Sequence record: PQ615101
DNA length: 64,000 nucleotides
Source of the DNA: Shigella phage SP21535
Strand: one strand, 5' to 3'
Shown here piece after piece: positions 39,304-40,662 of this stretch. Each line of letters starts with the position of its first letter. Position 1 is the stretch's first letter. The notes below the pieces were generated by a model, which worked only from the letters and a program-made list of their open reading frames with translations, was not told the origin of the DNA and searched no databases. The position numbers were made by a program, and so were the translations under genes.

Positions 39304-39376
39304 TGGGAATTAGCCAAGTTGGTAAGGCATAGCACTTTGACTGCTAGATGCAAAGGTTCGAGTCCTTTATTCCCAG
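39304..39376 (+). tRNA. tRNA-Gln (anticodon TTG)
   Basis: Cloverleaf: acceptor TGGGAAT/ATTCCCA, anticodon loop CTTTGAC, T-arm GGTTCGAGTCC. Confidence 0.85.
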
Positions 39377-39377
39377 C

Positions 39378-39464
39378 GCGAGAATGGTCAAATTGGTAAA
39401 GGCACAGCACTTAAAATGCTGCGGAATGATTTCCTTGTGGGTTCGAGTCCCACTTCTCGTACCA
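39378..39464 (+). tRNA. tRNA-Leu (anticodon TAA), long variable arm, CCA encoded
   Basis: Acceptor GCGAGAA/TTCTCGT, anticodon loop CTTAAAA, T-arm GGTTCGAGTCC, 3' ACCA. Confidence 0.85.
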
Positions 39465-39470
39465 AAGTTT

Positions 39471-39541
39471 GCGGATATCGTATAATGGCATTACCTCAGA
39501 CTTCCAATCTGATGATGTGAGTTCGATTCTCATTATCCGCT
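39471..39541 (+). tRNA. tRNA-Gly (anticodon TCC)
   Basis: Acceptor GCGGATA/TATCCGC, anticodon loop CTTCCAA, T-arm GGTTCGATTC. Confidence 0.85.
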
Positions 39542-39554
39542 CAAATTTAATTTA

Positions 39555-39628
39555 CTCCGTGTAGCTCAGTTTGGTAGAGCGTCTGCTTTGGGAGCAGAAT
39601 GTCGCAGGTTCAAATCCTGCCGCGGAGA
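39555..39628 (+). tRNA. tRNA-Pro (anticodon TGG)
   Basis: Acceptor CTCCGTG/CGCGGAG, anticodon loop TTTGGGA, T-arm GGTTCAAATCC. Confidence 0.85.
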
Positions 39629-39630
39629 CT

Positions 39631-39717
39631 GGAGGCGTGGCAGAGTGGTTTAATGCACCGGTCTTGAAAACCGGCAGTCGCTCCGGCGACTCATAGGTTC
39701 GAATCCTATCGCCTCCG
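39631..39717 (+). tRNA. tRNA-Ser (anticodon TGA), long variable arm
   Basis: Acceptor GGAGGCG/CGCCTCC, anticodon loop CTTGAAA, T-arm GGTTCGAATCC. Confidence 0.85.
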
Positions 39718-39724
39718 TAATTTC

Positions 39725-39797
39725 GCTGATTTAGCTCAGTAGGTAGAGCACCTCACTTGTAATGAGGACGTCGGCGGTTCGATTCCGTCAATCAGCA
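39725..39797 (+). tRNA. tRNA-Thr (anticodon TGT)
   Basis: Acceptor GCTGATT/AATCAGC, anticodon loop CTTGTAA, T-arm GGTTCGATTCC. Confidence 0.85.
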
Positions 39798-39803
39798 TAT
39801 CAA

Positions 39804-39875
39804 GGCCCTGTAGCTGGAAGGTTCAAGCAAGCGACTCATAATCGCCAGATGGTGGTTCAATTCCACCCAGGGCCA
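39804..39875 (+). tRNA. tRNA-Ile (anticodon CAT, presumably lysidine-modified) or tRNA-Met
   Basis: Acceptor GGCCCTG/CAGGGCC, anticodon loop CTCATAA, T-arm GGTTCAATTCC; T4-type phages carry a CAU-anticodon tRNA-Ile here. Confidence 0.75.
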
Positions 39876-39916
39876 TATTTTGGGAACATAAATACTCTTA
39901 GAAATAGGAGATATTT

Positions 39917-40582
39917 ATGTTCCATTACACTTATAAAATAACAAATAAAATTAATAATAAAATTTATATTGGTGTGCATTCTACCGAAAATTTAGATGAT
40001 GGATATATGGGTTCTGGTAAATTATTAAAAAGAGCCCAAGACAAGTATGGTATAGAAAATTTCTCTAAAGAAATATTAGAGTATTTTGATGATAAAGAAT
40101 CTATGCTTGAAGCCGAGAAAAATATTGTCACAGAAGAGTTTTTAAATAGACCAGATGTGTATAATTTAAAACTTGGCGGTGAAGGTGGATGGGACCATAT
40201 AAATATTCCTGGGATGCTAAACCAGAAGAAAGATGCTAGCTTAAAAGGAGCTAAATCGTTTAAATCACGTTTTGAAAATGATATTTTACTTCAAGAAAAA
40301 TATCGTAAAATTGGTTCAAATGTATTTAAACGTTTGTGGTCAACTCCTGAATACAAGGAAAAATTTTTAAATAATAGCAGATTTTTAAATAAGCATCATA
40401 CTCCTGAAACTATTAATAAAATGAAAGAAATTCACGCTAAAAATAATCACCAGAAAGGAGAAAAGAATTCCCAATTTGGTATGATGTGGATTCATTCATT
40501 AGATGAAAAAGTTTCTAAACGTATTAAGAAAACTGACCCAATTCCAGAAGGATGGTTTAAAGGTCGAAAAATGAAATTTTAA
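39917..40582 (+). CDS. segB: GIY-YIG homing endonuclease SegB
   Basis: 221 aa; FHYTYKITNKINNKIYIGVH...YMGSG; located between tRNA subclusters. Confidence 0.85.
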   Translation: MFHYTYKITNKINNKIYIGVHSTENLDDGYMGSGKLLKRAQDKYGIENFSKEILEYFDDKESMLEAEKNIVTEEFLNRPDVYNLKLGGEGGWDHINIPGMLNQKKDASLKGAKSFKSRFENDILLQEKYRKIGSNVFKRLWSTPEYKEKFLNNSRFLNKHHTPETINKMKEIHAKNNHQKGEKNSQFGMMWIHSLDEKVSKRIKKTDPIPEGWFKGRKMKF

Positions 40583-40585
40583 TTA

Positions 40586-40662
40586 CGGGGCATAGCTCAA
40601 TTGTATAGAGCAACGGACTTCTAATCCGTAGGTTGAAGGTTAGAATCCTTCTGTCTCGACCA
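40586..40662 (+). tRNA. tRNA-Arg (anticodon TCT), CCA encoded
   Basis: D-arm GCTC/GAGC, anticodon loop CTTCTAA, T-arm GAAGGTTAGAATCCTTC, acceptor CGGGGCA/TGTCTCG with two G-U pairs, 3' ACCA. Confidence 0.6.

Follow-up and report, generated by a model that had tools for sequence, protein, structure and literature searches.

A T4-type tRNA operon with segB and RB32-type tRNA alleles in Shigella phage SP21535

Published work already covers the tRNA cluster of bacteriophage T4, the homing of SegB to tRNA genes and the CAU tRNA of T4-like phages, which is of the lysidine type. In T4 (NC_000866, 70908-72530), genes for tRNA-Gln, Leu, Gly, Pro, Ser, Thr and Ile are followed by segB, tRNA-Arg, rnaD and rnaC. 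A middle promoter has been placed just upstream of the cluster and the precursor is roughly 1.75 kb long (PMC2330249), while rnaC and rnaD are stable small RNAs of unknown function (PMC3014915). Here we describe the corresponding region of Shigella phage SP21535 (PQ615101). It lies in a stretch of 64 kb, referred to below as the window, and all positions are window coordinates.

T4 SegB has been shown to make site-specific double-strand cuts, and its gene to be inherited preferentially in mixed infections, reaching >99% of the progeny from T4 x T2L crosses. The 27-bp site of the enzyme begins with GGTTCRANTCC, a motif of the T-arm. The gene for tRNA-Asn of T2L is the preferred target, and cleavage of other tRNA genes is weak. 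The enzyme has been proposed to be relaxed in its specificity and to have a two-domain architecture (PMC2330249). SegB has the N-terminal GIY-YIG catalytic domain in common with I-TevI and other GIY-YIG homing endonucleases. Unlike I-TevI, it is free-standing and not intron-encoded, and its target is a DNA motif of the tRNA T-arm. T2 is without segB; it has an open reading frame (ORF) followed by CAU-Tyr-Asn-Arg, the preferred SegB site being in tRNA-Asn. In T6 (PMC13096335) and in phage FJ1, segB lies directly upstream of tRNA-Arg, and tRNA-Tyr is kept between the CAU tRNA and segB.

We consider it very likely that the tRNA operon of a Tequatrovirus (a T4-like coliphage) is present here with the allele set of RB32/RB33, and that the account of transcription, decoding, a tRNA-Ile2 and SegB homing given below holds together with this identification. 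The RB32-type combination of alleles is already present in GenBank, and the biology is textbook T4 biology.

Gene order, alleles and a probable transcription unit

A megablast search against phage genomes matched 940 phage records, nearly all of them from T4-like phages of Escherichia or Shigella. The best record is about 96.5% identical to a 25-kb query and no deposited genome is identical to it. By its sequence, the window belongs to Tequatrovirus.

ARAGORN places exactly eight tRNA genes in the 64-kb window, every one of them on the plus strand. Each is matched over its full length by RF00005, the covariance model of Rfam for tRNA, with 57.0-73.5 bits (gathering score 29; E 2e-15 to 7e-11). 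For the tRNA genes, both programs agree with a preliminary description that had placed seven tightly packed tRNA genes, segB and a tRNA-Arg at these same positions, and the model supports every cloverleaf, including that of tRNA-Arg, about which the description had been most cautious. The spacers inside the block of seven measure 0-13 nucleotides (nt). Besides the eight tRNAs, Rfam returned between 38500 and 42000, at E <= 1, only sub-threshold plastid and small-RNA look-alikes sitting on the tRNAs; rnaD and rnaC matched no family in this search. The features are listed in Table 1.

Table 1. Features of the tRNA operon of phage SP21535 in window coordinates
Feature	Position	Strand	Evidence and remarks
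Candidate MotA-dependent middle promoter	39207-39234	+	MotA box ATATGCTTTA at 39207-39216, 12-nt spacer, -10 TATTAT at 39229-39234
tRNA-Gln (UUG)	39304-39377	+	ARAGORN; Rfam 66.0 bits; 73/73 identical to T4
tRNA-Leu (UAA)	39378-39464	+	ARAGORN; Rfam 57.0 bits; 86/87 identical to T4
tRNA-Gly (UCC)	39471-39542	+	ARAGORN; Rfam 63.3 bits; 71/72 identical to T4
tRNA-Pro (UGG)	39555-39629	+	ARAGORN; Rfam 70.2 bits; 57/64 identical to T4
tRNA-Ser (UGA)	39630-39718	+	ARAGORN; Rfam 62.7 bits; 86/87 identical to T4
tRNA-Thr (UGU)	39725-39797	+	ARAGORN; Rfam 73.5 bits; 72/73 identical to T4
tRNA with anticodon CAT	39804-39875	+	ARAGORN; Rfam 59.9 bits; T2/RB32-type allele, not that of T4
RNA hairpin burying the Shine-Dalgarno sequence (AGGAG) and AUG of segB	39883-39923	+	Predicted fold
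segB, free-standing GIY-YIG homing endonuclease, 221 amino acids	39917-40582	+	Pfam; PHROG; identity to T4 SegB
tRNA-Arg (UCU)	40586-40662	+	ARAGORN; Rfam 69.2 bits; CCA encoded; RB32-type allele
rnaD (species 2 RNA)	40664-40783	+	111/115 identical to T4; annotated in T4 and RB33; fold z -2.9
rnaC (species 1 RNA)	40790-40928	+	136/139 identical to T4; fold z -4.1
Intrinsic terminator of the tRNA/segB/rnaD/rnaC unit	about 40980-41010	+	10-bp stem with 7 G-C pairs, then a T run

The order Gln-Leu-Gly-Pro-Ser-Thr-CAU-segB-Arg-rnaD-rnaC, situated between the trna.2-4 ORFs and the e.8 side, is that of T4, and the flanking ORFs are the same in the two phages, including trna.2-4 upstream. The splitting of the cluster by segB, to which the preliminary description had drawn attention, is found in the same gene order in T4 and RB33. 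The genes for tRNA-Gln, Leu, Gly, Ser and Thr, together with segB, rnaC and rnaD, are 96-100% identical to those of T4, whereas tRNA-Pro, the CAU tRNA (63.5%) and tRNA-Arg (44% in the alignment) are different alleles. The divergence starts and stops at the ends of tRNA genes, and segB, in between, is 97.6% identical.

RB32 and RB33 (DQ904452, KM607001) have the gene order of the window and also its CAU and Arg alleles. Identity to them is 96.5% along 1.85 kb and 100% across the final 103 nt of segB and tRNA-Arg. RB33 differs from the window in having a T4-type tRNA-Pro and by a few point differences, for example at position 72 of tRNA-Leu and in the CCA of tRNA-Gly. The CAU tRNA of T2/T2L and T6 is identical to that of the window (100%), and these phages have the Gln-to-Ser block in common with it. 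As in T6 and FJ1, segB directly precedes tRNA-Arg in the window, which is however without both tRNA-Tyr and tRNA-Asn. This mosaic agrees with published descriptions of the region (PMC2330249), and it fits the nuclease genes at recombination boundaries described in PMC10448857. The closest records (F1, FN and IME537) have some 360 additional bases right after tRNA-Arg, at about window position 40663, and in them an ORF of 351 nt. T2 likewise has a 351-nt ORF after tRNA-Arg; the window, T4 and RB33 are without it.

Several individual tRNA genes have features of their own. That for tRNA-Gln abuts tRNA-Leu, an arrangement of the dimeric precursor type, and encodes its CCA incompletely. Both tRNA-Leu and tRNA-Ser have a long variable arm; the CCA is encoded in the former and absent from the latter. 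In tRNA-Leu, G1·U72 (39460) is found where T4 and RB33 have G1-C72. The 3' end of tRNA-Gly (39543) is TCAA, against TCCA in T4: the encoded CCA reads CAA and differs from both T4 and RB33, so that repair of the 3' end by the host CCA-adding enzyme would be needed. tRNA-Pro represents a third allele, unlike those of T4 and RB33; its anticodon and T stems and the 3' strand of its acceptor stem have changed in a compensatory way. It is 100% identical to the allele of Yersinia phage PST and is present at >=99% identity in 42 records.

The candidate middle promoter lies in the gap upstream of tRNA-Gln and is conserved in sequence between the window and T4. At 39210-39234 it fits the pattern TGCTTYA-N11-13-TANNNT, which has 9 matches in the window, where 2.2 are expected. 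By analogy with T4, a single transcript of about 1.77 kb probably runs from this promoter to the strong intrinsic terminator and includes the seven tRNAs, segB, tRNA-Arg, rnaD and rnaC; its length is in line with that of the T4 precursor. Such a transcript would be processed by host RNase P and 3' trimming nucleases and, for the tRNAs without an encoded CCA, by the CCA-adding enzyme.

Codon usage and the identity of the CAT-anticodon tRNA

Codon usage was compared between 74 long ORFs of the window (18,281 codons) and 40 annotated E. coli K-12 genes (15,000 codons). The five most phage-enriched codons are AGA (11.2-fold), AUA (5.0-fold), UCA, ACA and GGA, while UUA, CCA and CAA come 9th, 17th and 21st by phage/host frequency ratio. 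The eight cognate codons of the cluster thus occupy ranks 1-5, 9, 17 and 21 of 61 (Mann-Whitney p 2.5e-6), and the earlier proposal that the anticodons fit phage-enriched codons is supported in this comparison. Because the phage is AT-rich (G+C = 36%), the test was also restricted to the 14 sense NNA codons, among which the cognates rank 1-6, 8 and 10 (exact probability 7/3003 = 0.002). In addition, the eight codons are commoner in minus-strand ORFs (168 per 1000) than in plus-strand ORFs (131 per 1000; z ~6.8). The minus-strand ORFs include baseplate and tail genes, as annotated in relatives.

All eight tRNAs, through U34 or through a C34 converted to lysidine, would read NNA codons. As these are far commoner in the AT-rich phage than in E. 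coli, and most of all in late structural genes, the phage tRNAs would top up decoding capacity. Codon supply is the classical explanation for the T4 tRNAs. Two points count against giving it too much weight. Codon supplementation is modest in T4, and tRNA deletions are viable. Moreover, immune evasion is a further use to which phages can put their tRNAs and SegB (PMC13096335), and codon supply therefore need not be the sole role.

A reading of the cluster as mainly a counter-defence system, in which spare tRNAs replace cut or depleted host tRNAs and SegB is kept for the rapid amplification of useful tRNA genes that its breaks allow, and neither for codon supply nor for selfish homing, is conceivable, though we rate it as rather unlikely. 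It draws on T6, which overcomes the Septu defence when a unit of tRNA-Tyr and segB is amplified in tandem in a SegB-dependent manner (PMC13096335), and on the significant co-location of segB with tRNA genes across phages. The window, however, is without tRNA-Tyr, and no tandem amplification of segB and a tRNA in the manner of T6 was found when direct repeats were searched for. The eight anticodons also track the contrast in codon usage very closely, and such a match would not be expected if the tRNAs were pure decoys. Both roles can coexist, and counter-defence would be an addition to codon supply more than a replacement for it.

The tRNA with the CAT anticodon is best read as a tRNA-Ile2 which, with its C34 converted to lysidine by host TilS, would read AUA; all the sequence criteria tested point to this identity. 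Its nearest genes among all complete E. coli genomes are annotated tRNA-Ile in 5423/5426 genomes, and include the Stx-prophage tRNA-Ile upstream of stx2 and K-12 ileX, annotated tRNA-Ile(CAU). Identity is 79.5% to the Stx-prophage tRNA-Ile (ileZ) and 75.3% to ileX, compared with 56.8% to metT (elongator Met) and 48.6% to metZ (initiator). In the 17-nt anticodon arm, the phage tRNA does not differ at all from the Stx-prophage tRNA-Ile. Together with ileX/ileY and ileZ, the phage tRNA has the CAU anticodon in the loop CUCAUAA, the pairs C4-G69, C5-G68, U12-A23, C29-G41 and G30-C40, and A73.

Known identity elements lead to the same assignment. The acceptor stem, GGCCCUG/CAGGGCC, contains C4-G69 and C5-G68, the two pairs that act as positive determinants for E. 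coli TilS (PMC2500205, PMC1635315). Among the determinants listed for isoleucyl-tRNA synthetase (IleRS; PMC9976931), A73, C4-G69, U12-A23, C29-G41, A35, U36, A37 and A38 are all present; in the D loop, no clear match is seen to G16, U20 and U21, and ileX itself has U16. Under the E. coli identity rules, host TilS would recognize C4-G69/C5-G68 and convert C34 to lysidine, after which IleRS would charge the tRNA and AUA would be read. Nolan et al. (2006) had already described the CAU tRNAs of T4-like phages as lysidine-type Ile tRNAs, despite Met calls by tRNAscan (PMC1524935).

The initiator tRNA is distinguished by a C1xA72 mismatch, A11-U24, G12-C23 and three G-C pairs at the bottom of the anticodon stem (PMC1635315). 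The phage tRNA has instead G1-C72, C11-G24 and U12-A23, and its anticodon stem (G28-C42, C29-G41, G30-C40, A31-U39) is without the three-G-C run. The preliminary description had called this tRNA not initiator-like and more likely a lysidine-modified Ile isoacceptor. The first statement stands as made, and the TilS and IleRS determinants together with the identity to ileX and ileZ argue for the second, in which lysidine formation and charging with Ile would follow from those determinants.

Some observations fit the Ile2 assignment less well. The D arm is non-canonical: its stem has 3 bp and its loop 10 nt (GGAAGGUUCA), and the positions of A14 and A21 of ileX are occupied by G and C. There is also an A27·C43 mismatch. 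The allele is just 63.5% identical to the tRNA-Ile of T4, and it is labelled tRNA-Met in most GenBank records as well as in PMC2330249 and PMC13096335. In contrast to ileX and ileZ, the short D stem and unusual D loop are accompanied by a 4-nt variable loop and by A15:U48 for G15:C48, and the CCA is not encoded.

It is improbable that this gene specifies an elongator tRNA-Met reading AUG. ARAGORN does label it as tRNA-Met, the identical sequence is annotated in this way in RB33, T2 and hundreds of other records, and the name is used for T2L and T6 (PMC2330249, PMC13096335); besides, an Ile2 tRNA with an unmodified C34 gets charged by MetRS (PMC1635315). However, in place of C4-G69 and C5-G68 of the phage tRNA, the elongator has U4-A69 and A5-U68, two pairs that act as determinants for MetRS and as antideterminants for TilS (PMC2500205, PMC1635315). 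The TmcA determinants C27-G43, C30-G40 and G44 (for these and the MetRS elements see PMC2500205 and PMC9976931) are absent as well, their places being taken by A27·C43, G30-C40 and A44. Identity (57% to metT against 75-80% to ileX/ileZ) and the anticodon arm in common with the Stx-prophage tRNA-Ile also speak against Met, as does codon usage: AUG is used 21.5 times per 1000 codons in the phage and 26.7 in the host, while AUA is 5-fold enriched in the phage. A Met label on this common CAU allele of T2, T6 and RB32 matters for analyses of phage tRNA repertoires and codon supply. At >=99% identity the allele is found in 448 phage records, and it is 100% identical to the "tRNA-Met" of T2. A tRNA 98.6% identical to it occurs in Murica and ime, Escherichia phages of 135-137 kb, which suggests from sequence similarity a transfer of this gene between phage groups.

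SegB and its recognition motif

The gene for SegB is the sole long ORF between the CAT-anticodon tRNA and tRNA-Arg. Its product matches the Pfam GIY-YIG domain PF01541 with 28.5 bits (cutoff 22.6; E 1.9e-6) and the homing endonuclease family PHROG 314 with E 1.6e-51. Length and position are those of T4 segB, with 650 of 666 nt (97.6%) and 217 of 221 amino acids identical. The protein retains Y17 and G19, the residues mutated in a catalytic-dead T6 SegB (PMC13096335). At E <= 0.01 only GIY-YIG and SegE_GIY-YIG are found by Pfam; the C-terminal half is nearly identical to that of T4 SegB, and a C-terminal NUMOD3 DNA-binding motif has been reported for SegB (PMC2330249).

The exact core motif of the SegB site occurs 7 times in the 64 kb, and always in the cluster: in tRNA-Gln, Leu, Pro, Ser, Thr, the CAT-anticodon tRNA and rnaC. 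Matches with one mismatch elsewhere in the window are at chance level. The copy in rnaC (40906-40916) forms part of a tRNA-like T-arm at the 3' end of this RNA. The preferred 27-bp site was reconstructed from the tRNA-Asn of T2. The resulting 27-mer differs from T2 tRNA-Ser at positions 6, 16, 18, 26 and 27; these are exactly the five mismatch positions published in 2008 (PMC2330249), which validates the reconstruction. No copy of the 27-mer is present in the window, the best match being tRNA-Ser (21/27), and ARAGORN finds no tRNA-Asn there.

The hairpin over the start of segB has a predicted stability of -21.4 kcal/mol (z -6.6), and 0 of 200 shuffled sequences are equally stable. The same element has been proposed for T4 segB (PMC2330249), and by extending across the ribosome-binding site it would hold expression of the gene low. 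Following the experiments with T4, T2 and T6, SegB would act as a selfish free-standing GIY-YIG homing endonuclease, and repair of a cut genome from a segB+ genome would copy segB, together with the adjacent tRNA genes, into it.

The T-arm of tRNA-Arg does not have the exact core motif, which is broken by A56, and this allele is found with and without segB upstream. The idea that the change from C56 to A protects the segB-adjacent gene from SegB by breaking GGTTCRANTCC was considered and is largely rejected. ATK47 and O157 typing phage 3 are examples of phages that carry the A56 allele with no segB in front of it, and six other tRNA genes and rnaC of the cluster keep the exact core. The T-arm of T2 tRNA-Arg (GGTTCGATCCC) is also off the core, yet this gene is among those reported to be cut in T2L (PMC2330249).

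tRNA-Arg(UCU) and elements flanking the operon

The cloverleaf of tRNA-Arg is regular, and only two of the eight genes have a higher covariance score. Its acceptor stem contains two G·U pairs (G3·U70 and G5·U68). The tRNA further has A15:U48, U19:A56 and the T-arm GGTTAGAATCC, and it is 100% identical to that of RB33. It was compared with eight relatives from six genera. U19:A56 and A15:U48 are common to the window, FJ1 and a Gelderlandvirus; G19:C56 is found in all six other relatives and G15:C48 in five, T4 being poorly aligned at 15:48. When compared with the Jiaodavirus allele, 6 of 7 differences fall in three covarying pairs, and covarying changes of this kind are the signature of a functional tRNA.

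That tRNA-Arg could be a decayed, non-functional tRNA-like sequence, as might be thought from its two acceptor-stem G·U pairs, a T-loop UUAGAAU and not UUCGAAU (no C56) and a D-loop without the GG dinucleotide (no G19), is extremely unlikely and was rejected on the covariance score and the compensatory changes, namely those in the three covarying pairs and the joint change of U19 and A56, and likewise of A15 and U48, with respect to G19:C56 and G15:C48 of relatives; furthermore, the CCA is encoded, the ArgRS determinants A20, C35, U36 and A73 are present and the identical allele is kept in 26 phage records.

The acceptor helix of this tRNA has a further property: A73, G2-C71, G3·U70 and G4-C69 are all of the acceptor-branch determinants for bacterial alanine identity (listed in PMC9976931), and G3·U70 has been described as sufficient for recognition by alanyl-tRNA synthetase (AlaRS; PMC11415595). 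The alanine element G20 is missing, tRNA-Arg having A20, the main ArgRS determinant. Its first pair is C1-G72, where all tRNA-Ala have G1-C72. Exact-pattern scans of IMG/VR detected the G3 form on at least 5 backbones of the tRNA-Arg family, with the A3 form on the same backbones. The recurrence of G3·U70 on several backbones points to a variant that has been repeatedly tolerated, which is unusual for a non-alanine tRNA. In the literature library searched, no paper on this was found.

One might speculate from these nucleotides that tRNA-Arg(UCU) has a dual identity, host AlaRS charging part of the pool so that Ala would be inserted at some AGA codons during infection; we regard this as unlikely. 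Alternatively, C1-G72, A20 and competition by ArgRS may block AlaRS, in which case the 3:70 pair would be neutral in tRNA-Arg. The RB32-type tRNA-Arg offers a simple testable case in a phage and host that are both well studied: it may show natural mischarging, or else natural antideterminants that keep AlaRS away.

Around the operon, the three ORFs upstream of the cluster gave full-length PHROG matches to families of unknown function only, and a Pfam search of the flanking ORFs gave no match. The terminator hairpin is present in two copies (40978-41006 and 41521-41549) which are 93% identical (TTAGCCCCRNCCGAAAGGTTGGGGCTTTT) and 543 nt apart, and which bracket an ORF of 152 amino acids (41057-41515). 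Further out, a 38-nt repeat is found at 38291-38328 and 41990-42027, with 76% identity between its copies. It begins with GTTTACATAGG and ends with a TAnnAT-like hexamer, and, judged by these sequence features, resembles two T4 early promoters, one on each side of the region.

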